Origin: Candidatus Magasanikiibacteriota bacterium
GTDB taxonomy: Bacteria; Patescibacteriota; Patescibacteriia; Magasanikbacterales; UBA922
Direction: 5' to 3'
Assembly (NCBI GenBank): GCA_018652595.1
Contig: JABIBU010000022.1
Location: 50,346 to 114,345 of the forward strand
DNA: 64,000 nucleotides
The number at the start of each line of letters is the position of its first letter. The first letter of the stretch is position 1. Of this stretch, positions 250 to 18,823 are shown piece by piece. The notes beneath the pieces are model-generated. The model saw only the letters and a program-made list of their open reading frames with translations. It ran no database searches and had not been told where the DNA came from. Made by a program: the position numbers and the translations under genes.

Positions 250-1785
250 ATGAAATATACATCCATAATCGGCATGGAAGTCCATGTAGAGTTAAAAACC
301 AATTCCAAAATGTTTTGTTCATGCAAAAATGACCCTAATTTTGCTAATCCCAATACTAATATCTGTGAAATCTGTACTGGTCAGCCGGGGACTCTTCCTG
401 TGCCAAACAAGACTGCAATTGAATGGACTGTAAAAGTAGGCAAGGCTCTAGGTTGTGATATCCGCAAACTATCAAAATTTGATAGAAAACACTACTTTTA
501 TCCAGACCTACCAAAGGCCTATCAAATATCCCAATATGACGAACCAGTTGCAGAAAATGGTGAAATAACCTTAAGTTTTACAGTAGAGGAAAATATCAGA
601 GATATTGCCAAAATTGGCATAGAAAGGGCACATCTAGAAGAAGATACAGCCAAACTACTACATGACGATAAAAACGCCACATTGGTTGATTTTAACCGTG
701 CAGGCACCCCTCTGGTCGAGATTGTGACCAAACCAGACTTCAAAAGCTCTATGGAAGCCAAAGTGTACTGCCAAGAGCTCCGCACCCTTCTTCGTTACCT
801 AGGGGTGAGCGATGCTGATATGGAAAAAGGTCATATGCGCTGTGAAGCCAATATATCTGTTCAAGAGGCTGGTAAATTTGAAATTGATGACAAATTAGTA
901 AAGCCACTTGGAAATTATAAAATAAATCACAAAATAGAATTAAAAAACCTTAATTCTTTCAAAGCAGTGGAGCGAGGAATTGAATATGAAATAAAACGCC
1001 AGACAGAGCTACTAGAAAAAGGCGAGACTTGGGGACAAGAAACTCGTGGTTGGAATGATGACAAAGGCGAAACAGTCTTGCAACGTGTAAAAGAAAGCTC
1101 TGCAGACTATAGATATTTCCCAGAACCAGATATTCCCCCATTTCATCCCGAAAAAATCTCTGGCGTTGTTTCACTTCCAGAATTACCACAGGCCAAGCGT
1201 GCAAGATTTCACAGCGAATATGATCTGTCTTATGCTGATGCCAAATTACTTAGCGAAAACAAAAGTTGGGCCAATTTTACTGAAGAAGTAATGAGCGAAC
1301 TGACCGAATGGCTAGACTCTCTACCAGAAACAAAAAACAAAGCTGAAAATGTCCCACAAAAAATCGCTCGCCTAGCTGGGGCTTGGCTTACTAGTAAACT
1401 AATGGGAGTTTTGAAAGAAAAGAAATTAGATATTGATCAAATTAATTTTTCAGCTGAAAATTTTGCCGAGCTCATTGCTCTTATTTATACTGGCAGAGTA
1501 AACGGCACAAACGCTTATAAAATTCTTCTCATAATGGCAGGAAGCGACAAAGACCATGACCCAACTCACCTTCTAGAAGACAAAGGCTGGGGCCAAGTTT
1601 CTGATGAGGGTAAAATTAATGAAGTGGTGGACGAAGTAATAAAAAGCCATCCAAAACAAGTAGAAGAATTCAAATCTGGCAAAGAAACTGTTTTGAAATT
1701 CTTGATCGGAATGGTAATGAAAGCTACAGAAGGCAGTGCTGACCCTAAAGTTGTTGAGGGTGTTTTGCGAGGAAAGTTAGCGTAG
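250..1785 (+). CDS. gatB: Asp-tRNA(Asn)/Glu-tRNA(Gln) amidotransferase subunit B
   Basis: IGMEVHVEL, RKHYFYPDLPKAYQISQ, HLEEDTAK, DFNRAGTPLVEIVT, DYRYFPEPDIP motifs. Confidence 0.98.
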   Translation: MKYTSIIGMEVHVELKTNSKMFCSCKNDPNFANPNTNICEICTGQPGTLPVPNKTAIEWTVKVGKALGCDIRKLSKFDRKHYFYPDLPKAYQISQYDEPVAENGEITLSFTVEENIRDIAKIGIERAHLEEDTAKLLHDDKNATLVDFNRAGTPLVEIVTKPDFKSSMEAKVYCQELRTLLRYLGVSDADMEKGHMRCEANISVQEAGKFEIDDKLVKPLGNYKINHKIELKNLNSFKAVERGIEYEIKRQTELLEKGETWGQETRGWNDDKGETVLQRVKESSADYRYFPEPDIPPFHPEKISGVVSLPELPQAKRARFHSEYDLSYADAKLLSENKSWANFTEEVMSELTEWLDSLPETKNKAENVPQKIARLAGAWLTSKLMGVLKEKKLDIDQINFSAENFAELIALIYTGRVNGTNAYKILLIMAGSDKDHDPTHLLEDKGWGQVSDEGKINEVVDEVIKSHPKQVEEFKSGKETVLKFLIGMVMKATEGSADPKVVEGVLRGKLA

Positions 1786-1841
1786 TGCAAACATGGCAGT
1801 ATCCTGATTACGCATTATATATAAATTTTATTTCAAAAACT

Positions 1842-2615
1842 ATGAAGGTTCCCAAAAAGGCTTATTTTTTTATTGTCCCCTTATTAATAGCCGTATTTTG
1901 GATAGTCAATATCTATTCGAGTAAAATTACTGTATCAATTTATGATGGAACGACTGGGCAACCACTTATCGGAGCGGAGATTCAAGTTGATACATACTAC
2001 ACTTTTTTTGATAGTACAAAACATGACACTCAAATTATTTACACAGATGAAAATGGTAAAGCTACAGTTTATCCAACTCACAATAATCTTTCTAGTATCA
2101 CAGTATTCCACGAAGGCTATTTCCCAGAATCCATTGGTGGTAATACTCAAAAATATATATTAGCCATGTCACCGATTGAAGATTCTGGTCATTTTGTTAA
2201 TTTTTCATACACTTTTACCACTCCAAATGGAGATGAAATTGACTACAATCGTTTGAAATCGCAAAAACCACTTGATGATTATCTTTCTGATTCATATTTT
2301 AAATATTGGAGCTGGTTAGCAAACAAAAAGAAAGACTATTTATTGTGTGAAAATATCACTGAGATCAAAGACCATGACGACTGCTTAGTGTCTGTAGCCG
2401 AAACTACAAAAAATTATACTATTTGTGAATTAATTGATAAAAATACTTTTTGTTTTGCATCAGTTGCTTACAACACAAATAATGTGTCTATTTGTGATAA
2501 ATCTCATGATGTTGCATATTGTGAGTTATTATTTCAGTCAAAAAAAGGCATATGTTTGTCAGTAGAGGAAGCGAAAAAACTTGATATGAAAGTTCCGTGT
2601 ATAAATAATAAATAA
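1842..2615 (+). CDS. membrane-anchored exported protein with an Ig/carboxypeptidase-regulatory-like domain and Cys-rich repeats
   Basis: Likely start MKVPKK at 1842; N-terminal TM segment; VYDGTTGQPLIGAEI...TDENG-type motif; three repeats of the form C-x2-I...C-x3-VA. Confidence 0.65.
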   Translation: MKVPKKAYFFIVPLLIAVFWIVNIYSSKITVSIYDGTTGQPLIGAEIQVDTYYTFFDSTKHDTQIIYTDENGKATVYPTHNNLSSITVFHEGYFPESIGGNTQKYILAMSPIEDSGHFVNFSYTFTTPNGDEIDYNRLKSQKPLDDYLSDSYFKYWSWLANKKKDYLLCENITEIKDHDDCLVSVAETTKNYTICELIDKNTFCFASVAYNTNNVSICDKSHDVAYCELLFQSKKGICLSVEEAKKLDMKVPCINNK

Positions 2616-2676: not shown

Positions 2677-5502
2677 CTAAACTGGTTCTGGCTGTGGTTG
2701 AGGCATAGGCTGTGGTTGGGGTGGTTGATTTGCACTAGAATCAACAGATGGTAGTGGAGGAGGTAATTGTATATCTTCTTTAGGTGTAAGAGGAGCAGGA
2801 AGAACATTCGGTGGCATCTGATCATTATGGAATTCCTCTCTAACCATATCCCCACGGTCAAAATCTCTAGGCTCTGGTCTGATATAATTATCAGGTTTAT
2901 CAAACCTAACTTCTTCATCTTTTTGAGGCATTTCATAACGATTATCGTGAATTTCTCCTACGGGTAGAGGTCCTTCTGGTTTTATTTCTAGTCGTCTTTC
3001 TTCTGGACGAAATTCTGAAGGAGGCGGGTGCGGAAGAGATGGGTCAAGTGGTTCCATCTGTCCCCCATCCTGTATACGACGTTCTTCTTCCCAGCGACGC
3101 TCTTCTTCTTTACGTCGCCCATCTTCTTCTGTTAACCTTTTTTGATCTTCAAACACATAGACCTCTTGTTTAATATTCTCATATTGATACATCTCATCCA
3201 TTTCTTGCCTTCTCTTTTCAAGACCACCATCCATGGTTTGATTAAATAGCTGTTCTTCTTCTCTTCTACATTCATCATCACAAAATGGATCAAATGATAA
3301 ATCTTTCTTAAATGTTTGTTTGCGTAGTTCAAATTCCTTGTCCATAACAGCTTGCCTAGCTCGCCTTTCTTCTTCTCGAACTTGTTTTAATTCTTCTTCA
3401 CCTTTGGCTGAGCCATATTTTTCTTGGAAAATACGCTCAATATTTCTATTTTCTTCTTGAATTTTATCGTGTGCTTTTCGTTCTTCATCACGTAATTCTT
3501 GCCCACGAATCATGTCTTGTTTATTATCCAGGCGTCCACGAAAATCTATACCGTTCTGATTAAGTTTTTCAAACACATCTTCATCAGCCCCAACAAATTT
3601 TTGTTTAAATTGAAGAAGTGCTTCTGGGTTATCAATATGTTCCACATAGTCTGTAATAAATCCTGACTGATGTTGAATTGCTTGGTCAAAAAACCTTCCA
3701 CCACCCACAAAAGGAGGAGGACCAAACCCATCAGGACCTACACCGGGAGGGGCAAATCCTTCTTCATCCCCAAATGGAGGTGGAGGTGGTGCAAAAAACA
3801 TTTCTGGATTTTGGGCAAATTCTTCTTTCAATCTTTGAAGTGTTTCAATATCCTCTGGATTATTTGATTCAATTTGTTGAAAAAATTTCTCACCTTCCGA
3901 TCTGGCGCGCTCAATAAATTTTGTCTTTACTTCACGTTCCATTTTATCCATAAATTCTCTCTGCTCTGGGGTTAATTCTTTTTCTAACTCTTCAATCAAT
4001 CGAAATGCGGTTGGGTCGGGATTATCTGCCATTTGTTTTGAAAGTTTTTCAAACCTATCAGCAACATCTTGTGCGCCTGTATCTCCAGAAAATGCCTCGC
4101 GAAATCTATTTAACCCTTCTGTGTGCCGCTGTTCCATTTCTTTTTGCAAATCTTCATCTTCAAAATTAACTCGCTGTCTTATTTCTTCCATCACACGCAT
4201 CTTTGCTACATCAGGTTCATTCTCTTTGAATCTGGCAAACTCTCGTTCTCTCATCCTATCCCTAAACTCTTGTTCAAAGTTGTCTCCTTCAAATCTCTCC
4301 ACGTTATTCTGTATCCTGCGTGCGGCAATATCTTTTGCTACTTCAATTTTTTGACGCAATTCCTCTGGAACATCCTCCAATTGTCTGATACGGTCAAAAA
4401 TTTCCATATGAATTGTCTCATCACCACCAACGTCTCTAACATATGACTCAAACTTTTCAGCATGCCGGGCTCGATCTTCCTCTGGTATTCGTTCAAATTC
4501 TTTGTTAAAACGATTCAAAGCGTTATCTTGTGCCCGAAGAATTGCTTCACGAGCTTGTTCTGGTACTCTTTCTCCAATTTGTTGCAAAACTTCCAAATTA
4601 CGAAAGTTTTTAAATTCACTTCCACGCTGTTTTTTAAGCACACGGTCAATTCTTTCAGTTAGATGCTCACCATCTTCTCCTACCTTCGAAAAAACATCAC
4701 CAACCGCTCTTGCAGACTTCTGTCTTGCCATATCTGCTTTTTCAAAAAGCCTTTGTGCTATTTCTGGTTCATAATCAAGTGCTTCTTCTCCAATTTTGGA
4801 AAAGATCTTTTGTTGCTTAATTTGGGTATCAAGCACATCATCCAAAAACCCATCCACTCTTACATCTCCTTCTTCTTGACCTTTATGCAAATCGTCCACT
4901 CTCTTTACAATTTTTTCAATTCTTCTGTTTACATTATCTATTTCCTTTATAATTTTTTCCACACCCTTTTGGTCGTCTATTCCCTCTCCCCATCTGTGCT
5001 GAAGTTCGACCAAATCTTCTCTCATAAACTGCAGGTCAAGCTCGCTGTCTTTTACATCATCAAATGTGACTGCTTTTTTAAAAAATCTACCAACTTTATC
5101 AAACAATCCTACTCTTGACCCTTCTGCCACTCCCAAATCCTCATTTGTTACAAATTCATCTTGAGCAGCCTCTTCTGATGTTCCAAAACCATCATCACCA
5201 ACTACCATGTCAGTTTCACCACCAGACAAAAGACCATCATCAAACTCATCGGTTCCTGCTGTCTGTTCAACATCTTCAGTCAATTGTTCATATTCACCCT
5301 CAAGACTTTTATGATCTTCTGGGCCCAATGTACCATTTTGCAAAGGCAAATCTAATCCACCTGTCTCACTAGATGGCTCATCCACTTCTGCTAGCGCTCC
5401 GTCTTGCCCCAAATCTAATGCCTCGGCTTCCTGTGCATTTGCAGGAAGAACAAATAAAAAACCAGCTATCAGCAATAGAACGCCTATTTTTTGATATTTC
5501 AT
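2677..5502 (-). CDS. large secreted helical protein (DUF5667-like N-terminal region, Pro-rich segments)
   Basis: Signal peptide ending ANA|QE; segment GLFDKVGRFFKKAVTFDDVKDSELDLQF resembles DUF5667; E/R-rich coiled coils; Pro-rich tail. Confidence 0.6.
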   Translation of the reverse strand: MKYQKIGVLLLIAGFLFVLPANAQEAEALDLGQDGALAEVDEPSSETGGLDLPLQNGTLGPEDHKSLEGEYEQLTEDVEQTAGTDEFDDGLLSGGETDMVVGDDGFGTSEEAAQDEFVTNEDLGVAEGSRVGLFDKVGRFFKKAVTFDDVKDSELDLQFMREDLVELQHRWGEGIDDQKGVEKIIKEIDNVNRRIEKIVKRVDDLHKGQEEGDVRVDGFLDDVLDTQIKQQKIFSKIGEEALDYEPEIAQRLFEKADMARQKSARAVGDVFSKVGEDGEHLTERIDRVLKKQRGSEFKNFRNLEVLQQIGERVPEQAREAILRAQDNALNRFNKEFERIPEEDRARHAEKFESYVRDVGGDETIHMEIFDRIRQLEDVPEELRQKIEVAKDIAARRIQNNVERFEGDNFEQEFRDRMREREFARFKENEPDVAKMRVMEEIRQRVNFEDEDLQKEMEQRHTEGLNRFREAFSGDTGAQDVADRFEKLSKQMADNPDPTAFRLIEELEKELTPEQREFMDKMEREVKTKFIERARSEGEKFFQQIESNNPEDIETLQRLKEEFAQNPEMFFAPPPPPFGDEEGFAPPGVGPDGFGPPPFVGGGRFFDQAIQHQSGFITDYVEHIDNPEALLQFKQKFVGADEDVFEKLNQNGIDFRGRLDNKQDMIRGQELRDEERKAHDKIQEENRNIERIFQEKYGSAKGEEELKQVREEERRARQAVMDKEFELRKQTFKKDLSFDPFCDDECRREEEQLFNQTMDGGLEKRRQEMDEMYQYENIKQEVYVFEDQKRLTEEDGRRKEEERRWEEERRIQDGGQMEPLDPSLPHPPPSEFRPEERRLEIKPEGPLPVGEIHDNRYEMPQKDEEVRFDKPDNYIRPEPRDFDRGDMVREEFHNDQMPPNVLPAPLTPKEDIQLPPPLPSVDSSANQPPQPQPMPQPQPEPV

Positions 5503-9422: not shown

Positions 9423-11561
9423 TTATAACACATTTAGGTGGTTTTGTCTATACTTAAAATACTCATCAATAGCGCCGTCAACAAGTCGCACAGCCAGACC
9501 AATATAATCCTCTGGATGTAATACTGTCAAAATTTCTTGTTTAACTACATCTTCCACATCTAGACCTGTTACAAACCTACGCAAATCTTCTAGAGTCACC
9601 TGCTTGCCACGTGATTCTTTTTTTACTATTTCATAAGCATCAATTCGACCATATTTTCTGAGGATTGTCTGTATTGCTTCAGTTATTATTTGTGGATTAT
9701 TATTAATTTCTTCGCGAGCAAATTCCACATTAGGACGGATAAGATCAAAAGCAATTTGTAAGTGTTTCAGAGCTACATATACATAACCAATAGCCTCACC
9801 ATAAGACTTTTCCAAATCATGATCAGACAAATCACGCTGTAAACGAGATACATCTAGCTCAGATGAAAAGACATTGAATAATGCGTTGGCTTTTTTTATA
9901 TTACCCTCTGCCACCTCAGCAAACCAAGGATTTATTTTGTGTGGCATTACAGACGAACCCACGTGGCTCTCCACCTTTGTAAAATACATTGTACCAAAAC
10001 CAGCATAGAGCGACATGTCTACAGCAATATCGCGAAGTACATTACCAACTTCTTGCACTGCTTGTAGTTTGGAAATCATATCCACATGTGTCCCCCGCTG
10101 ATCAGTCCAAAGTTCACACTCTAAATTTAAACGCTTGGTTAATTCTTTTGAATATTTTATCCAATCCAAATCTGGATAAGCCGATACAAAACTATTATAA
10201 TTCCCAACTGCTCCATTTATTTTTCCAGTCAATTTTACTGATTGCATTTTTTGCAAACCATTAGTTAGTCTAACTAAATAATTGGCAAATACCTTACCAA
10301 AAGTAGTCGGGCTCGCGGGCTGTACATGAGTCCTGGCCAAAAGTGGATTGTTTTTATATTTTTCAGACAAACTTTTCAACACTTCAGTTGTTTCCAATAC
10401 ACTTGGAACAAATAATTCACTCATTCCGTCATTCAGCATCATTTTGTAGGCCAAATTATTAATATCAGCCGAAGTCGTAAACATATGTACAAAACTGGCA
10501 ACATCTGATAGACTCGTGTTTTCCATTTTTTCTTTTATCCAAAGCTCGCATGCTTTCATGTCATGTTCAACAGGACCAACACCATTTCTACCCAAGTGAT
10601 CATACTGCAAAACTTCGTAAGCTGAACTTTCGGAAAAATTATCTGCCAAATCTTTTAACCATTCCTTTTCTTTTGGTGTAAATAATCTCACTACTTGCCC
10701 ATCAAAAAAATCAGATAAGCAGAGTAGATGTTCTATTTCGGCTTTTACACGATACTTGTGCAGTGCATACTCAGAAAAATAGTGGCGAAGTGGTGCGGTC
10801 ATTTCTCCATGTCGCCCATCCAAGGCTGAAGTACTTTGCAAAGATTTTTTATAACGATCTACTTTTATTACTTCTTCTAAAATATTTTCTATGTTTTCCA
10901 AATTCTTTACAATCAAAGCATCTTCAATACCCATCTCATGAAAATCTTCTCTAGTCGTTTGCCCTTGGCAAACCCCAACAAATTTTATTTTTTGATAAAA
11001 ACTGGAATAATAATCATCACTGTGATCACCAAACATTACAGTCTGTTCTGGCTTGATACCAATATTTTCTAAATGTTTAATAGCTTCTTCAAAAGCTCTT
11101 GGGTGTGGCTTTCTAAATTCCAGCTCAGGCGGAATATGCATAAAAGCAAAATCATCAATATCAAAACCAGCCTGAGCCAGTCTCTCTGACAACATTCTCA
11201 CTCTGTTCGTCACCAACCCAACGACTAAACCAGCCTGCTTTAGACTCTTTATTGCTTCTAGAGATCCAGAAGTAGGATCATACTTTTCACTTGGAGAGTG
11301 CTCTCTATAATTTCCCAAAACTACTTCCCACAATTCCTGTCCATTGCTAACACCAAGGAATAATTCCTTAAAAATATCTTCAAATGGCAAATTCTTTGCT
11401 TGAATCCGATAAATATCGTCTTTTGTTGGCTTAGATACAGAAAAACCACCCTTAATAAGGCGGTCTACAGTTTTTGTAATATTTTTTACCACAAAATCAT
11501 TAGAGGCAATCAAAGTATTGTCTACATCAAATATAACTGCTTTTATTTCTTTGTCTATCAT
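9423..11561 (-). CDS. purB: HAD-family phosphatase fused to adenylosuccinate lyase
   Basis: N-terminal FDVDNTL, VTN, KPHP, FGDH..D HAD motifs; C-terminal SALDGRH, SEYAL, RTHVQPA, GSSVMPHKINP, SRLQRDLSD (E. coli-type PurB). Confidence 0.9.
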   Translation of the reverse strand: MIDKEIKAVIFDVDNTLIASNDFVVKNITKTVDRLIKGGFSVSKPTKDDIYRIQAKNLPFEDIFKELFLGVSNGQELWEVVLGNYREHSPSEKYDPTSGSLEAIKSLKQAGLVVGLVTNRVRMLSERLAQAGFDIDDFAFMHIPPELEFRKPHPRAFEEAIKHLENIGIKPEQTVMFGDHSDDYYSSFYQKIKFVGVCQGQTTREDFHEMGIEDALIVKNLENIENILEEVIKVDRYKKSLQSTSALDGRHGEMTAPLRHYFSEYALHKYRVKAEIEHLLCLSDFFDGQVVRLFTPKEKEWLKDLADNFSESSAYEVLQYDHLGRNGVGPVEHDMKACELWIKEKMENTSLSDVASFVHMFTTSADINNLAYKMMLNDGMSELFVPSVLETTEVLKSLSEKYKNNPLLARTHVQPASPTTFGKVFANYLVRLTNGLQKMQSVKLTGKINGAVGNYNSFVSAYPDLDWIKYSKELTKRLNLECELWTDQRGTHVDMISKLQAVQEVGNVLRDIAVDMSLYAGFGTMYFTKVESHVGSSVMPHKINPWFAEVAEGNIKKANALFNVFSSELDVSRLQRDLSDHDLEKSYGEAIGYVYVALKHLQIAFDLIRPNVEFAREEINNNPQIITEAIQTILRKYGRIDAYEIVKKESRGKQVTLEDLRRFVTGLDVEDVVKQEILTVLHPEDYIGLAVRLVDGAIDEYFKYRQNHLNVL

Positions 11562-12202: not shown

Positions 12203-12277
12203 ATGAAGAATAAATATATACAAAAAGAAGGTCGTTTCAAATTGCCAGCCGAGGCAGACCAATTCATTTATTTCTAA
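12203..12277 (+). CDS. putative pyr leader peptide (24 aa, MKNKYIQKEGRFKLPAEADQFIYF)
   Basis: Follows TTGCGC-17-TAAAAT promoter; ends 6 nt before a terminator stem. Confidence 0.55.
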   Translation: MKNKYIQKEGRFKLPAEADQFIYF

Positions 12278-12283
12278 TAATTC

Positions 12284-12310
12284 CACCCCGAAAACATCGG
12301 GGTGTTTTTT
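12284..12310 (+). promoter_or_regulatory. attenuator terminator upstream of the pyrimidine operon
   Basis: CACCCCGA-AAACA-TCGGGGTG-TTTTTT directly abutting ATG 12311. Confidence 0.7.
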
Positions 12311-13282
12311 ATGCAAGATTGGAATTTAAAAAATAAATTTTTAACAGCTGTAAATACTAACGGTGGATTTGTAAATTGCCATGGACATTTTGATAAAGCC
12401 TTTTTTATCAGTCCAGAGAAATTAGATAATTCTATGCTTGACATGCAAGCTAAGTGGCAATTGAGTGATGATACAAAAAGAAATAGTTCAATTGATGAAA
12501 TAGCTGATAGAATTAGATGTGCTCTTGATATTATGATTGATCAAGGTGTAAAAACAACTCTAAGTTTTATAGATGCTTACTCAGCTGTCGGACAAAAAGC
12601 AGTAATAGCTGCCAATCAAGTTAAACAAGAGTATAAATATAAAATAAATTTTTTAATCGCCCCTCAGCCAATAGGCGGATTACTAGACCCCGAAGAAAGA
12701 AAAATATTTGAACTGGCAGCTAGTAAATCTGACATAGTCGGAGGTCTACCCTCACGAGATCGTCCTTACATACAAAAAAGTTTTGATATTCTTTTTTCTA
12801 TTGCAAAAAAACTAGACAAACCAATACACGTCCACATTGACCAAGAAAATAATCCAGATGAAAGAGACACTGAAACACTGATTTATTATACAAAAAAATA
12901 TGGCTATGAAGGCAGAGTAGTTGCAATTCATGCTGTATCAACTACCACACAACCAAAAAAATATAGAAAGCACTTGTACAAGAAAATGGCAGAACTCAAA
13001 ATAAGTGTGGTTGTTTGCCCGTCAGCAGCGCTTAGCATGAAACCAACAAATAATAAATTATCACCTATTCGTAATTCAATTGCTCCAATTTCAGAAATGA
13101 TAGAAGCTGGAATTACTGTTGGACTAGGCGTAGACAATATATATGATTTTTACCAGCCTTTTGTAGACGGGGATCTATGGTTTGAGACTAGAATGTTGAT
13201 GGAAGCTACTCGCTTTTATGATTTTGAAAAAGTTTTAAAAATTGTAACTGAAAATGGAAAAAAAATATTAAATATTAAATAA
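12311..13282 (+). CDS. metal-dependent amidohydrolase, cytosine-deaminase (CodA)-like, atypical
   Basis: NCHGHFDK (HxH), HVHIDQ, VAIHAVS, GLGVDNIYD; the HxxE glutamate is replaced by Q; lacks the N-terminal beta-sandwich. Confidence 0.85.
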   Translation: MQDWNLKNKFLTAVNTNGGFVNCHGHFDKAFFISPEKLDNSMLDMQAKWQLSDDTKRNSSIDEIADRIRCALDIMIDQGVKTTLSFIDAYSAVGQKAVIAANQVKQEYKYKINFLIAPQPIGGLLDPEERKIFELAASKSDIVGGLPSRDRPYIQKSFDILFSIAKKLDKPIHVHIDQENNPDERDTETLIYYTKKYGYEGRVVAIHAVSTTTQPKKYRKHLYKKMAELKISVVVCPSAALSMKPTNNKLSPIRNSIAPISEMIEAGITVGLGVDNIYDFYQPFVDGDLWFETRMLMEATRFYDFEKVLKIVTENGKKILNIK

Positions 13283-13301
13283 TATAATTATTAAATAAAA
13301 T

Positions 13302-14939
13302 ATGGAACAAGACAAAAATACATATGCCCATATCGCCTCATATGAGCCAAAAAACAAAGAAGAGGTAAAAAAAGTAGTATTATTATATTCCGGTGGATTA
13401 GATACTTCGGTAATGCTCAAATGGATTAAAGATTTTTATGAAGCAGAAGTAATTGCTCTGTGTATTGATATTGGACAGCAGGTAGATGATTTGGATGCAA
13501 TAAAACAAAAAGCATTGGATTTGGGAGCAATAAAATCAATTGTCATTGACGCAAAAGACGAATTTGCTGATAAATACATCTCTCGTGGCATAAAAGCCAA
13601 TGGTCATTATCAGGGTGACTACAACTTAAGCACCCCAATAGGCAGACCACTCTTAGCAAAATTGGCTGTCCAGGTGGCCATGGAAGAAAAAGCCGACACT
13701 ATTGCTCATGGCTGTACTGGCAAGGGCAATGATCAAGTCAGAATTGAAGGTACTGTAGTTACCTTGAACCCAGATTTAAAAGTTATTGCCCCAGTAAGAG
13801 AATGGGGGATGGGTCGTGATGAGGAAATTGAATATGCCAAAAAGCATAATATTCCTATCCCCCACACAATTGACAAATCATATTCGTCTGACGACAATAT
13901 GTGGGGAGTAACCAGCGAAGGTGGTGAAATAGAAAATCCAGAACTTGTCCCACCAATGAAAAAAATTCTTCAGGTCTGCACACATCCGGCTGACGCACCA
14001 GACGAAGAAGAGTTGGTTGAAATTGAATTTGTCAAAGGTATTCCCACAGCTCTCAATAACGAGGAAATGAAATTAAGCGAACTTATTATAAAATTGAACA
14101 AGTTGTCCGGCAGACACGGTATTGGTATTGCCCACCATATTGAAGATCGAATCGTAGGTCTAAAAGTTAGAGGCATTTATGAACAACCGGCTGCTCACAC
14201 AATTATAAAAGCTCACAAAGAATTGGAAAAATACGTTTGCACTCGACACGAAAATAAATTCAAAGAATTAGTTGATCAGGAATGGGCATATCTTTGTTAC
14301 GGTGCTTTGTGGTTTGAACCGTTGATGAAAGATCTGTCAGGTTTTATAGACACCATGAATGAAAAGGTGAACGGAAAAGTAACTCTGCGCCTATTCAAGG
14401 GCCACTGCGACACAGTTGCACTAAAAACTCCAGACGCTCTATTTGACGAAAAACTAGCCACATTCATGAAGGATGACCTATTCAATCAAAATGCATCATC
14501 GGGCTTTATTGAACTATGGACCTTGCAAATGAAGATGGCAAAACAAAGCAAAAAGAATGTTCTACTTACTATAGGCGGACAAGAAAACAAAGAAGGTCTT
14601 CTCCCAGAAATAAAAGCACTTGAAAAATTGAATTGTGTGCTGTATGCTACCGAACATACGAGTGAATTCTTGGATAAGCACGGAGTCAAAAATCGGATGG
14701 TTTATAAGATATCCAATGGCGATTCTGAAAAAAGACCTAATATAGCAACACTACTAAGAGAAAGAAGATTTGATCTTATCATAAATATTCCCTCAGCCGA
14801 AAGAAACTTTACAACCGACACAGATGGTGAAAAAATTCGTGAATTAAGCATAAAAAGCAACGTGCCTTTGGTAACAAATATAGACGTTGCCAAACATACT
14901 ATCACTCAATTGCAAGATGTAATAGAAAACAAAATGTAA
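13302..14939 (+). CDS. argG: argininosuccinate synthase fused to a C-terminal MGS-like (CarB allosteric) domain
   Basis: LYSGGLDTS, HGCTGKGNDQVR, IEDRIVGLKVRGIYE; C-terminal LYATEHTSEFL...DLIINIP...DGEKIRELSIKSNVPLVTN is an MGS domain. Confidence 0.92.
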   Translation: MEQDKNTYAHIASYEPKNKEEVKKVVLLYSGGLDTSVMLKWIKDFYEAEVIALCIDIGQQVDDLDAIKQKALDLGAIKSIVIDAKDEFADKYISRGIKANGHYQGDYNLSTPIGRPLLAKLAVQVAMEEKADTIAHGCTGKGNDQVRIEGTVVTLNPDLKVIAPVREWGMGRDEEIEYAKKHNIPIPHTIDKSYSSDDNMWGVTSEGGEIENPELVPPMKKILQVCTHPADAPDEEELVEIEFVKGIPTALNNEEMKLSELIIKLNKLSGRHGIGIAHHIEDRIVGLKVRGIYEQPAAHTIIKAHKELEKYVCTRHENKFKELVDQEWAYLCYGALWFEPLMKDLSGFIDTMNEKVNGKVTLRLFKGHCDTVALKTPDALFDEKLATFMKDDLFNQNASSGFIELWTLQMKMAKQSKKNVLLTIGGQENKEGLLPEIKALEKLNCVLYATEHTSEFLDKHGVKNRMVYKISNGDSEKRPNIATLLRERRFDLIINIPSAERNFTTDTDGEKIRELSIKSNVPLVTNIDVAKHTITQLQDVIENKM

Positions 14940-14945
14940 TAATAC

Positions 14946-15860
14946 ATGTCTAAATTAAAAACCAGATTCCTAGACAAAGAATTCAAAAACCCCATTGTCC
15001 TTGCATCGGGCATCTTAGGGTTAACCGCGGCCAGCATGAACAATGCGGTGAATAATGGGTGTGGTGGTGTGACTGTAAAATCTGTTTCCAAAGATGCTAG
15101 ACCCGGACACCCAAATCCTACTATGACCGGCACTGATCATTATTTTATCAATGCGGTTGGGCTATCTAATCCAAGTGTGGCCGAAGGAATAAAAGAATTT
15201 GCAAAATTTAAGGAGATGACTAATGCGCCTTTGGTTGGTAGTATTTTTGCTGGAACACCAGATGAATTTGCTGAGGTAACTGAAATAATTTGTCAGTCCC
15301 CGATTGATTTTTTGGAAGTAAATGTTTCTTGCCCAAATGTAAGCAAAGAATTTGGCACACCTTTTGCTTACGATACCAAAGCGGTTGAGGTAATTACAAA
15401 AAAAGTAAAAGAAAAATCCACTGTACCAGTTATAATAAAACTTACTCCCCAAGCTTGGAACGTGGCTGAGATTGCAAAAGTAGCAGAAGATGCTGGCGCT
15501 GATGCTATTTGCGCTGGAAATACTATTTCTGGCATGGCAATAGATATCAGAGCAAGGAAGCCAGTGTTACACAACAAACAAGGTGGTGTATCTGGCCCTG
15601 CTTTATTTCCTGTGGCTTTGAAGGCTGTTTATGATATTTATAAAACTGTAAAAATCCCAATCATCGGCACTGGTGGAATTACCACAGGCGAAGATGCCAT
15701 CGCCATGGTTATGGCTGGGGCAAGCTTACTAGGTGTTGGTTCTGCAGTCTACTATCGAGGACAAGATGTATTTGAAAAAATAAATAATGAAATGACAGAA
15801 TTCATGAAAAAAGAAAATATAAATTCACTTGAAGAAATTAGAGGAATAGCTCATAAATAA
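14946..15860 (+). CDS. pyrD: dihydroorotate dehydrogenase class 1B catalytic subunit
   Basis: NPIVLASG, NAVGLSNP, NVSCPNV, GGVSGPA, IIGTGGI. Confidence 0.95.
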   Translation: MSKLKTRFLDKEFKNPIVLASGILGLTAASMNNAVNNGCGGVTVKSVSKDARPGHPNPTMTGTDHYFINAVGLSNPSVAEGIKEFAKFKEMTNAPLVGSIFAGTPDEFAEVTEIICQSPIDFLEVNVSCPNVSKEFGTPFAYDTKAVEVITKKVKEKSTVPVIIKLTPQAWNVAEIAKVAEDAGADAICAGNTISGMAIDIRARKPVLHNKQGGVSGPALFPVALKAVYDIYKTVKIPIIGTGGITTGEDAIAMVMAGASLLGVGSAVYYRGQDVFEKINNEMTEFMKKENINSLEEIRGIAHK

Positions 15861-15861
15861 T

Positions 15862-16698
15862 ATGGAAAATAATAATCCACAATTTATTCCGATATCAAAA
15901 ATAGTTGAAGAAGCCCAAGATATTAAAACTTTTTATTTTGAACATAGTTTAAATTCCAAACCAGGACAATTTATAATGCTTTGGGTACCAGAGCATGACC
16001 AGAAGCCATTTTCTATTGCGTATGATGATGGTAAATCTTTTGGTCTAACTTTTTTCAAACGTGGCCCAACCACGACAAAACTTTTTGATATGAAAGTTGG
16101 TGAAAGAGTTGGGATTGAAGGTCCGTTTGGCACGAGCTTTTCTCGTAAACCCGATACTCACTACATCATGGTCGCTGGAGGTTATGGTGCGGCACCGTTG
16201 GGGTTCTTGGCAGAATCGCTTTTGTCTCCCCCTGCCGGAGGGGGAGATGCCCGCAGGGCAGAGGGGGTGGGAGTAGACTTCTGTGTTGGTGCTAGAAATA
16301 AAGATTTAGTTTTATTTAAAAACAGAATAGAAAAAATTCCAAATACAAAACTTCATATCGCGACAGACGACGGTAGCGAAGGACATAAAGGATACATCAC
16401 TGATATATTATCAAACTTAATTGATAGCGCTGAAAAAAAAGTATTAGTTGTCACTTGTGGTCCAGAACTTATGGAAAAAAAGATTTTGAATATCTGTAAT
16501 GAAAAAAATACCGATTGCGAAATAAGCATTGAGAGATATATGAAATGTGGAGTTGGTATTTGCGGACAGTGCGCAGTTGACCCAATTGGAATTTGCATGT
16601 GTAAAGAAGGTCCAGTAGTAAAACGCGAACTGGCCAATAAAATAACTGAGTTTGGAAAATACCATCGCGATAAAAGTGGAAAAATTATTTATTTTTAA
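15862..16698 (+). CDS. pyrK: dihydroorotate dehydrogenase electron-transfer subunit
   Basis: PGQFIMLW, KPFSIA, AGGYGAAP, TDDGS, CGPELM, ERYMKCGVGICGQC (2Fe-2S). Confidence 0.92.
   Translation: MENNNPQFIPISKIVEEAQDIKTFYFEHSLNSKPGQFIMLWVPEHDQKPFSIAYDDGKSFGLTFFKRGPTTTKLFDMKVGERVGIEGPFGTSFSRKPDTHYIMVAGGYGAAPLGFLAESLLSPPAGGGDARRAEGVGVDFCVGARNKDLVLFKNRIEKIPNTKLHIATDDGSEGHKGYITDILSNLIDSAEKKVLVVTCGPELMEKKILNICNEKNTDCEISIERYMKCGVGICGQCAVDPIGICMCKEGPVVKRELANKITEFGKYHRDKSGKIIYF
16225..16268. repeat. GC-rich palindromic element inserted in frame in pyrK
   Basis: TCTCCCCCT-GCCGG-AGGGGGAGA TGCCC-GCA-GGGCA GAGGGGGT, encoding SPPAGGGDARRAEGV. Confidence 0.75.
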
Positions 16699-16708
16699 TT
16701 TAAAAAAT

Positions 16709-17302
16709 ATGAAAGATTTAACACTAAAACTACACGAGATAGACGCGATTAAATTCGGAGAATTCAAACTCAAAAGCGGTATCATATCACCAATTTATAT
16801 TGACTTACGTGTGACAGTCTCCTATCCAAAAGTTTTGAAAATGGTTGCAGGTGCAATGTGGGAAAGAGTGAATAATATAAATTTTGACTTACTCTGTGGA
16901 GTACCCTACACTGCACTACCTTTTGCAACGGTTATGTCTGCAGAACATGATAAACCAATGGTCATGCGCCGCAAAGAAGTAAAAGGCTATGGAACTCGAA
17001 AAGCAATAGAGGGTTATTTTGAAAATGGACAAAATTGTCTCATTGTCGAAGATTTGATAACTAGTGGATCAAGTGTGTTTGAAACTATCGAACCGTTAGA
17101 GCATGAGGGATTAAAAATAACTGACATCGTAGTCCTGGTAGATCGTGAACAAGGCGGTAAAAAACATATTGAAGGCAAAGGATACAATCTACACTCCGTC
17201 TTAACAATTTCACAAGTCTTGGAAACGCTAGAGGTAGAAGAAAAACTAGACAGTGAAATGGTAAGCAAAGTAAAAGAATTTATCACCTCTAACCAAGTTT
17301 AA
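16709..17302 (+). CDS. pyrE: orotate phosphoribosyltransferase (UMPS-like)
   Basis: [43 protein letters not shown]; start ATG 16709. Confidence 0.95.
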
Positions 17303-17303
17303 T

Positions 17304-18068
17304 ATGCAAACATACAAACAACGCGCTGAACTCTGTTCAAATCCTACCGCTCACAGACTTTTTAAACTAATGGAAGAAAAGCAAACCAATTTGGCAATTG
17401 CGGCCGATGTAATATCAAAACAAGAGTTAATAAAAATTGCCGACGAACTTGGGCCTGAAATTTGTGTACTAAAAACTCATATAGATATTATAGAAGACTT
17501 TGATGACGACCTAGTAATACAATTGCAAAGACTATCCGAAAAACATAACTTCTTACTTTTTGAAGATAGGAAATTTGCTGACATCGGCAACACAGTAAAA
17601 CACCAATATGAAAATGGGGTCTACCATATTGCAGACTGGGCCGATATTACCAATGCTCACACTGTACCAGGACCAGGAGTTATCGAAGGGTTGAAAGAAG
17701 TCGGACTCAGGAAAGGACGGGGGCTTCTGCTCCTTGCTGAGATGAGCCCAAAAGGAAATCTGGCCACTGGTAGCTATACTGAGGCCAGCCTAAAGATGGC
17801 AGAGGAGCACAAAGACTTTGTTATAGGTTTTATAACAATGAAAAAATTACTTGATGATCCTTGTTTTATAAATATGACTCCGGGCGTAAAGCTCGTCCAA
17901 GGTGGAGATGCACTAGGTCAGCAATATAATACACCAGAAAAAGTGATCAAGGAGCAGGGTAGCGATATAATAATTGTAGGCCGAGGAATTTATCAAGCAG
18001 ACGATCCACTAGCCGAAGCAAAAAAATACCGAGAAGCTGGCTGGCAGGCATATCAAAATAGATTGTAA
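17304..18068 (+). CDS. pyrF: orotidine-5'-phosphate decarboxylase (URA3/UMPS-like type)
   Basis: [46 protein letters not shown]. Confidence 0.96.
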
Positions 18069-18084
18069 AATAATAATTAAAAAA

Positions 18085-18112
18085 GTAGAAACGTGCCATG
18101 ACACGTCTCTAC
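18085..18112. repeat. GTAG-type REP-like palindrome acting as bidirectional terminator
   Basis: GTAGAAACGTG-CCATGA-CACGTCTCTAC flanked by A and T tracts. Confidence 0.7.
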
Positions 18113-18127
18113 TTTTTTAATTATTAT

Positions 18128-18823
18128 TTAGTGTGGCAACTGATCAATCATTTTCTTAAAATCCTGCACATCCTGCTTACTGAACCCAACTTTACCTTTA
18201 TCTTTCTTAATTTGTTTTTTCATACTCTTTCTTACCAATCTACCAAAAGATCCGCCAGTTGGTAATTTACTTGCATGAGAATCAATCAGTTGTAAAATAT
18301 ATTCTCTGTCTTTCGCACTTAAATTCTTATAGGTCGCCGGGCTTTTCATTACAGCCCGACGCAATTTCATCTTCATGCCCTGTGTACCGCTCATACGGCT
18401 TAATTTTCCAGTGCTAAATCCAGCCTTCTCAACAGCTTTACCATAAACATCTTTAGCTCCTGTTTCTGCATTTTTCAAAGCTTCAGCCTTTTCTTTTGCT
18501 TGTCTAGCTTTTACCATTCTACGAATATAATTATATCGCAACTCATCTCTCTCTTGATCTCCCATATTTTCTCTGGACAGTGATTCATCAACTTCGGCAG
18601 GTCTACTAATAGATGTTGTGGCTTTCTGACCAATTCCTTCTGGGTGTGTAATTGAAGTACTTATTTTTGTGCTTTCACCCATAGCCCGACTCATAGAAGT
18701 TTTAGCTCTCTTAATTGAATCCCTACCCAAATGGGTAGTAGAAAAACTCTGAGCTCTTCCTGACTGTGATGAGCCAGAAGTCTTATTAAAAATTGGTAAG
18801 TTTTTTAGAGGTCCGATTGGCAT
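18128..18823 (-). CDS. hypothetical basic protein
   Basis: 231 aa ORF co-oriented downstream of miaA; rich in S/K/R. Confidence 0.7.
   Translation of the reverse strand: MPIGPLKNLPIFNKTSGSSQSGRAQSFSTTHLGRDSIKRAKTSMSRAMGESTKISTSITHPEGIGQKATTSISRPAEVDESLSRENMGDQERDELRYNYIRRMVKARQAKEKAEALKNAETGAKDVYGKAVEKAGFSTGKLSRMSGTQGMKMKLRRAVMKSPATYKNLSAKDREYILQLIDSHASKLPTGGSFGRLVRKSMKKQIKKDKGKVGFSKQDVQDFKKMIDQLPH

Follow-up and report, generated by a model that had tools for sequence, protein, structure and literature searches.

How does a bacterium that carries every gene from dihydroorotate to UMP obtain its dihydroorotate, if the enzymes that normally make it are missing? The question is raised by a stretch of 64,000 nucleotides from a Candidatus Magasanikiibacteriota bacterium (assembly GCA_018652595.1, contig JABIBU010000022.1, positions 50,346 to 114,345), hereafter the window, in which six genes lie on one strand in the order amidohydrolase, argG::MGS, pyrD, pyrK, pyrE and pyrF, with successive gaps of 19, 6, 1, 10 and 1 nucleotides. 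The amidohydrolase belongs to PRK06886, an uncharacterised family, and is abbreviated AMH below, and argG::MGS encodes an argininosuccinate synthase (ArgG) fused to a CarB-type MGS-like allosteric domain. An earlier note, made from the sequence alone, had described this tight operon and suggested that its first two genes take the place of carAB, pyrB and pyrC. The coordinates, gaps and gene families it gave have all been borne out, and PyrD, PyrK, PyrE and PyrF each score above their family cut-offs, completing the steps from dihydroorotate to UMP. Here we argue that the cassette in front of pyrD very likely draws, in one way or another, on argininosuccinate to provide the pyrimidine ring and, with somewhat less assurance, that AMH probably converts argininosuccinate into dihydroorotate and ornithine, a reading that rests on sequence comparison across genomes.

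Gene content of the genome and of its order

The assembly that hosts the operon (G000; other G and L numbers denote compared genomes and loci) comprises 964,590 b in 27 contigs and is 95.1% complete. Searches of the whole assembly gave no matches to PF00185 (transcarbamylases), to PF02786 and PF00988 (the carbamoyl-phosphate synthase, or CPSase, chains), or to the dihydroorotase profiles TIGR00857 and TIGR00856. Its sole PF01979 member is AMH and its sole PF00206 match is purB, hence there is no ArgH. Each family search for the absent genes was positive in 14 of 14 control genomes, and tblastn of G000 with PyrB, PyrC, PyrI, CarA, ornithine transcarbamylase (OTC) and ArgH of relatives returned no orthologue. 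The earlier note had seen no CarAB, PyrB, PyrC or ArgH in the window, and by both profile searches and tblastn their absence holds for the assembly as a whole; intact copies elsewhere in the genome, and with them a lack of conserved linkage of the gene pair to pyr genes, were looked for, and neither was found. With the canonical set of CarAB, PyrB and PyrC missing from a genome that is 95% complete, the lower pyrimidine pathway is left without its canonical supply. The arginine module argF-argG-argH is also incomplete, lacking both ArgH and OTC, and in a genome that has no ArgH, ArgG cannot serve arginine synthesis.

The slot just upstream of pyrD is filled by different cassettes in related genomes. 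In two genomes of the same genus (G091 and G127, PyrD 89-90% identical) it is occupied by pyrB-pyrI-pyrC-OTC, behind the same leader ORF (24-25 codons with the same ending, here preceding pyrB) and the same terminator; since leader and slot are shared, AMH-argG::MGS is an in-place swap. The pyrB-pyrI-pyrC-OTC arrangement recurs in G059 and G153, and carA-carB-pyrB-pyrI-pyrC, with or without OTC, fills the slot in G100 and G162. AMH-argG::MGS is found there in G087, G119, G117, G145 and G173, extended by OTC in G168 and G106 and by aspA in G035, and the remaining variants are AMH-argH (G177, G137), AMH-argH-aspA (G129, G178) and AMH-argH-argG::MGS (G132). The ArgG::MGS protein is 74-81% identical in eight other genomes, and two further copies are split across contigs.

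Among 201 genomes of the order, AMH is full-length in 19 and a remnant in one (G183), where AMH residues 1-55 adjoin the C-terminal part of the MGS domain, followed by a broken OTC (L364, G183:C31:7000-11500); this cassette has decayed as a unit. A transcarbamylase is present in 70 of the 201, just three of which belong to the 19 AMH carriers, and all three of these enzymes score as OTC-type (two slightly below the OTC cut-offs), leaving aspartate transcarbamylase (ATCase) in none of the 19. AMH, in turn, occurs in none of the 33 genomes that have two full transcarbamylases. Multifunctional-type PyrC was found in none of the 16 AMH genomes of the order tested (a set outside which G079, G159 and G187 fall), dimeric-type PyrC in none of 11, and CarB in one of 11. 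These genome searches bear out what the earlier note had named as a check on its proposal: AMH and ArgG::MGS stay together in pyr operons, and in the order the pair and ATCase are mutually exclusive. PyrD is a poor pathway marker in this order, being present in 109 of 201 genomes with many unlinked copies; many of the genomes have a dihydroorotate dehydrogenase whose open frame, of 350-420 aa, is not at the pyr cassette.

Three further arrangements were noted. The one CarB among those 11 AMH carriers, that of G173, is a protein of 949 aa without an MGS tail, encoded by an unlinked carA-carB pair (L232:6249-9996) in a genome that has AMH-argG::MGS and no transcarbamylase match. In G100 a fusion of the N-terminal 131 aa of ArgG with ArgH is encoded just upstream of carA-carB-pyrB (L119:7728-9296), probably a deletion remnant of argG-argH. 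Finally, pyrB-pyrI-pyrC-OTC operons are found in genomes without CarB (L234, L235, L241, L242), which suggests that such genomes make carbamoyl phosphate from scavenged citrulline by reversed OTC.

The proposed route and its enzymes

In the route we propose, ArgG would join citrulline and aspartate at the expense of ATP to give argininosuccinate, by its known chemistry, and AMH would then turn argininosuccinate into dihydroorotate and ornithine, which would be the new step. The likeliest course is that the aspartyl beta-carboxyl closes onto a guanidino nitrogen, after which a metal-bound water, as in AtzC, would attack C2 and ornithine would leave, although the two half-steps may also come in the reverse order; PyrD/K, PyrE and PyrF would complete the path to UMP. 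The formulas balance exactly, argininosuccinate being the sum of ornithine and dihydroorotate, and argininosuccinate can form cyclic anhydrides, a chemistry on which our literature search gave no paper. As PyrC is also absent, dihydroorotate is more likely than carbamoyl-aspartate to be the direct product. Citrulline is probably scavenged, as no source of it was found in G000, and in other relatives AMH would be fed by ArgH running in reverse, from arginine and fumarate.

The neighbours of AMH point to the same substrate. We surveyed 87 loci (18 from the order and 69 from a wider search), of which 48 carry unfused AMH and 39 an MGS::AMH fusion, and searched 50 AMH genomes, with 19 of the 69 wider loci left out as near-duplicates or short contigs. 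In 44 of the 48 unfused loci, argG (14) or argH (31) lies no more than two ORFs from AMH; of the other four, one is a contig end (G174), one is a stand-alone AMH with argH elsewhere in the genome (G210) and two are loci beside carA. The ArgH partners exceed the argH cut-off, and aspA, whose product connects aspartate and fumarate, is present in 4 of the 48 loci. AMHs partnered with ArgG and those partnered with ArgH are interspersed in one clade of a FastTree phylogeny, with 6 and 4 label changes, so the same AMH enzyme appears to work with either. Argininosuccinate is the sole metabolite common to ArgG and ArgH. This exchange of partners lends further support to the order of events favoured in the earlier note, in which citrulline and aspartate give argininosuccinate and ornithine is then released. 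Genes for AsnRS/AsnA-like catalytic domains come after AMH-argH in four loci (L036, at 12332-13183, L037, L039 and L043), and in a fifth an AsnRS-like protein is fused to MGS (L097:10889-12304) within argG::MGS-AMH-[AsnRS-like::MGS]-pyrD; these proteins could be a source of aspartate or could prepare ring closure by activating the beta-carboxyl.

AMH itself is not a CodA member, scoring 79-90 bits against CodA profiles with cut-offs of 403-483, and its own profile, NF005365, is above cut-off in none of the 14 control genomes. Its closest solved structure is AtzC (E 1e-19), ahead of CodA, and an ESM Atlas model (pTM 0.92) matches amidohydrolase clusters only, one of them AtzC-named, with a TM of 0.79. 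AtzC is N-isopropylammelide isopropylaminohydrolase, an enzyme that splits an alkylamine off a cyclic amidine, and the displacement of an alkylamine from a ring amidine carbon is the chemistry that AMH would need. In AtzC (PDB 2QT3, 4CQB; PMC4577212), Zn is bound via H60, H62, H217 and D303, H249 is used, and the ring is held by K65, Q160, N304, H219 and W309. The metal ligands and catalytic His have counterparts in AMH (H24, H26, H175, D275 and H207, respectively), as do the ring-binding Lys, Gln and Asn (K29, Q119 and N276), and the equivalent of D127 is kept, its position being counted from the alignment. Among 72 aligned sequences, H24, H26, H207 and D275 are found in all, H175 in 69, K or R at K29 in all, Q119 in 65 and N276 in 67.

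AMH is nonetheless distant from AtzC and differs from it in having an invariant Asp177 for H219 and Tyr281 (Tyr or Phe in the family) for W309, in its nucleotide-operon setting, and in lacking the small beta-barrel domain that AtzC forms from residues 2-55 and 358-403; AMH aligns to AtzC 53-353 alone. It also has invariant motifs of its own that are not those of AtzC, namely K48-W49, G144-L-P-S-R-D150 and D177-Q178.

The fusion protein resembles known ArgG and known CarB at the positions expected of each. Its ArgG domain lies above the equivalog cut-offs of TIGR00032 (Table 1) and NF001770 (514 vs 334), and at the ATP loop and the Asp- and citrulline-binding positions SGGLDTS, T139, N143, D144, R147, Y107, S195, E206, E281, Y293 and Y333 align with the Thermus thermophilus enzyme. 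T. thermophilus Ser89, which lies near the amino-acid end of citrulline, and Ser182 are replaced by Pro112 and Thr204. The citrulline-binding motifs that the earlier note had judged to be retained are all present, and the one departure, Ser89 to Pro112, also occurs in the plain Patescibacteria ArgGs that were aligned. In the MGS domain, K430, T450, T453, K469, N495, D508 and R513 correspond to Escherichia coli CarB K954, T974, T977, K993, N1015, D1025 and R1030, and all seven are conserved without exception in the 43 MGS domains from cassettes. CarB T977 and K993 are linked to UMP inhibition and binding (PMC6245113), and the fused domain probably makes the ArgG step sensitive to UMP. In a quick tree of 124 columns, the MGS domains of the two fusion types, ArgG::MGS and MGS::AMH, cluster together and separately from CarB (SH-aLRT 96), and the lone 'CarB' row within this cluster is an AsnRS-like fusion. 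Unlike CarB, this clade sits on the C-terminus of ArgG and elsewhere on the N-terminus of AMH; unlike known ArgG, the enzyme of G000 has a nucleotide-sensing domain fused to it, is located in a pyr operon and belongs to a genome that has no ArgH.

The MGS::AMH fusions extend the pattern to free-living bacteria. Their 39 loci come from Gammaproteobacteria, Desulfobulbaceae, Verrucomicrobia, Planctomycetota and others, and across 30 of the genomes PyrB is above cut-off in 3, PyrC in 3, and both are absent in 26, while 29 have a CarB match, 26 an ArgG match and 29 a PyrF match, and PyrD is matched in the five tested. The proteins behind sub-threshold PyrC matches in G225, G230 and G234 are of the dihydropyrimidinase or allantoinase kind. 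Among the 30 is a single-contig chromosome of Electronema, in which the two PF01979 proteins besides AMH are deaminase-type, and argG adjoins MGS::AMH in G222, G235 and G240 (the latter with its argG match at the same locus, L196). As a control, PyrB was found in 146 of 151 Desulfobulbales genomes, and the five without it include both AMH carriers; the hypergeometric value of 0.0009 overstates the association, as the two carriers are kin (cable-bacterium group) and were known beforehand. Free-living carriers would lead carbamoyl phosphate through citrulline and argininosuccinate to dihydroorotate by means of CarAB, OTC and ArgG, with ornithine recycled as a carrier. MGS would then be expected on AMH, at the branch point, where ArgG also works for arginine synthesis, and on ArgG where that enzyme serves pyrimidines only. 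The earlier note had proposed a carbamoyl-phosphate-independent route suited to a scavenging symbiont: the independence would hold for genomes like G000 only, since the free-living carriers keep CarB, OTC and ArgG and appear to pass carbamoyl phosphate through citrulline, and the key enzyme, found in free-living bacteria, is no symbiont speciality.

Counter-evidence and rival readings

Several observations weigh against the route. PyrB is kept in 13 of the 50 AMH genomes, including 10 of the 20 with unfused AMH, so AMH is not always a replacement. Those ten genomes are small, with PyrC above cut-off in nine and CarB also in most, ArgG absent in five and a second transcarbamylase absent in five. 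In such PyrB-keeping genomes AMH and ArgH might, speculatively, add arginine-derived carbon to pyrimidines or work in reverse towards arginine; AMH may make arginine in this way where PyrBC and ArgH are present and ArgG and OTC absent, and rough thermodynamics place the reaction, again speculatively, near enough to equilibrium for reversal. PyrF is absent in G079, G159, G187 and G209 despite AMH-argH, and G003 gave no PyrD match. In G226 an MGS::AMH gene follows a truncated pyrC, with the pyrB-carAB operon intact and no ArgG found, which fits a plain dihydroorotase and is the strongest case for that role. Arginine deiminase was searched for in G000 and not found, so that the source of citrulline is assumed. 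AtzC His219 is lost from AMH, and no AtzC-like site known to us combines two activities. AMH is also carried on large viral contigs, GVMAG records among them (91 copies found and 80 kept, L284-L363), and argH is nearby in only 2 of these 80 loci, pyr genes in 2 and purA/purB in 4. Lastly, most of the genomes are metagenome-assembled, and related carriers are not independent. The viral loci with informative neighbours are L292 and L293 (AMH-argH), L308 (pyrD/E/F-like genes) and L287-L289 and L352 (purA/purB); plasmid and phage collections held only distant amidohydrolases, 24-31% identical to AMH.

The alternative that survives best, which we nevertheless regard as unlikely, is that AMH does half of the job, either releasing carbamoyl-aspartate and ornithine from argininosuccinate while an unrecognised enzyme closes the ring, or acting as a non-orthologous dihydroorotase beside a moonlighting ArgG, ArgH or OTC. 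The position of AMH directly behind truncated pyrC in G226, the presence of PyrC without PyrB in G212, and the AsnRS/AsnA-like genes, with their possible beta-carboxyl adenylation, after AMH-argH in four loci and MGS-fused in the fifth would all fit such a division of labour. The operon of G000, however, has no spare gene and AMH is the only PF01979 member of the genome, where AsnRS-like queries match a single unlinked gene (contig C11); similarity between the AMH and PyrC profiles is not detectable (hhalign probability 1.4%), and in the dihydroorotase version ArgG, ArgH and OTC must each moonlight in different genomes.

A role in salvage is improbable to a slightly greater degree. Here AMH would be a nucleobase or nucleoside deaminase, or have a purine role, with dihydroorotate or orotate scavenged and the place in the operon incidental. 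The family, with more than 1,000 database clusters, does go by the names 'cytosine deaminase' and 'adenosine deaminase', in the window purA, purB and guaB lie nearby, as purA/purB do at the four viral loci, and there are the few genomes with AMH-argH and no PyrF. Uracil phosphoribosyltransferase (Upp), however, was not found in G000 or G035 and had no match above cut-off in G145 or G239, and CodA Glu217, Asp314 and Thr66 are replaced by Asp177, Asn276 and Lys29 in AMH. Salvage would also leave unexplained the linkage to argG or argH in 44 of 48 loci, the fusion to a UMP-type MGS domain, and the fact that 26 of 30 MGS::AMH genomes have lost PyrB and PyrC while retaining the lower pathway.

Least probable of all is a carrier other than ornithine, with ArgG or ArgH using urea, carbamate or guanidine to form guanidinosuccinate or carbamoyl-aspartate and AMH releasing ammonia in the manner of a cytosine deaminase: cytosine deaminases do come next after AtzC among AMH relatives, a Pro stands at the Ser89 position of ArgG::MGS and no citrulline source was detected in G000, but ArgG and ArgH exceed their equivalog cut-offs with the remaining citrulline-site positions kept, the Pro is also found in plain ArgGs adjoining argH, the ArgG of most free-living carriers is an ordinary one in a single copy, and OTC lies inside the cassette in G168 and G106.

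Leader, neighbouring genes and implications

The features of the operon are collected in Table 1. Its leader ORF and hairpin make up a probable attenuator leader, which we take, by analogy, to be pyrL-like, and by which transcription may be attenuated. A hairpin and T-run resembling this one was seen by eye upstream of most of the related cassettes inspected. The leader region had no match in Rfam, and a PyrR-like loop considered in it was dropped, as it is not conserved among relatives. One public contig covers 11500-18300 without differences and may be the source sample.

Table 1. Positions of the leader and operon features in the window, with the evidence for each
Feature	Position	Strand	Evidence
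Leader ORF, 24 codons, T-rich tract at its end	12203..12277	+	ORF reading, relatives' leaders
Intrinsic-terminator-like hairpin (12284-12304) and T-run, abutting the AMH start	12284..12310	+	hairpin scan (shuffles 0.2)
AMH, metal amidohydrolase of AtzC/CodA type, 323 aa with the barrel only, PRK06886	12311..13282	+	NF005365 370.6 bits, cut-off 340
argG::MGS, whole gene	13302-14939	+	ArgG residues 24-412, MGS residues 433-525
ArgG (argininosuccinate synthase) domain of the fusion	13302..14546	+	TIGR00032 458 bits, cut-off 268
CarB-type MGS-like allosteric domain fused to ArgG	14556..14939	+	alignment with E. coli CarB
pyrD, family-1 dihydroorotate dehydrogenase	14946..15860	+	TIGR01037 329 bits, cut-off 270
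pyrK, electron-transfer subunit	15862..16698	+	NF000796 267 bits, cut-off 224
pyrE, orotate phosphoribosyltransferase	16709..17302	+	NF010382 231 bits, cut-off 208
pyrF, OMP decarboxylase	17304..18068	+	TIGR01740 206 bits, cut-off 92

Downstream, a long inverted repeat at about 18069-18128, with only sub-threshold Rfam matches, separates pyrF from a convergent ORF of 231 aa and is probably a two-way terminator. The 231-aa gene (18128-18823, minus strand) recurs downstream of pyrF in relatives; like two other ORFs of the window, at 2677-5502 (minus strand, 941 aa) and 1785-2615 (plus strand, 276 aa), it has no Pfam match. Upstream, at 9423-11561 on the minus strand, a HAD-family hydrolase is fused to the adenylosuccinate lyase PurB in a protein of 712 aa, and similar long ORFs are found in L102-L104.

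Compared with the canonical pyrimidine pathway, the operon has the same lower four genes and, judged by its same-genus relatives, the same slot and leader, and the ring would likewise derive from aspartate and a carbamoyl group. It differs in having no ATCase, dihydroorotase or CPSase, the C-N bond being made, as we propose, by ArgG and the ring by an AtzC-like enzyme. The nearest parallel is found in Thermococcus kodakarensis, where ArcE and ArcB are reported to derive the carbamoyl phosphate used for pyrimidines from arginine or citrulline (PMC13260591). There too an arginine or citrulline skeleton supplies the ureido group without CarAB, and the operons of G091 and G127 look similar; the archaeal route, however, passes through carbamoyl phosphate, PyrB and PyrC, none of which figures in that of G000. 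The literature within our reach, from which most subscription papers fall out, gave no account of an argininosuccinate route or of PRK06886.

On balance, and a little less firmly than for AMH of G000 itself, we consider it likely that the PRK06886 proteins are enzymes that interconvert argininosuccinate with dihydroorotate and ornithine, and that they define a second de novo route to pyrimidines, in which neither ATCase nor dihydroorotase takes part. This pathway would draw on citrulline via ArgG::MGS, or on arginine via ArgH, in Patescibacteria, would run as a UMP-controlled ornithine-carrier cycle in free-living members of several phyla, and would be represented in jumbo phages and giant viruses by a single auxiliary gene. 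The folds involved are known throughout; the reaction and the pathway would be the new part. ATCase and dihydroorotase are usually deemed obligatory; if the reading is true, pyrimidine synthesis has a second entry route, which meets arginine metabolism at argininosuccinate. Such a route would account for the missing pyrB and pyrC of cable bacteria (Electronema), Beggiatoa-group sulfur bacteria, Competibacteraceae and some Verrucomicrobia, and would give a function to the PRK06886 family and to the viral auxiliary gene. Metabolic models of Patescibacteria, in turn, would change: what the host has to provide would be citrulline or arginine, and not pyrimidines.

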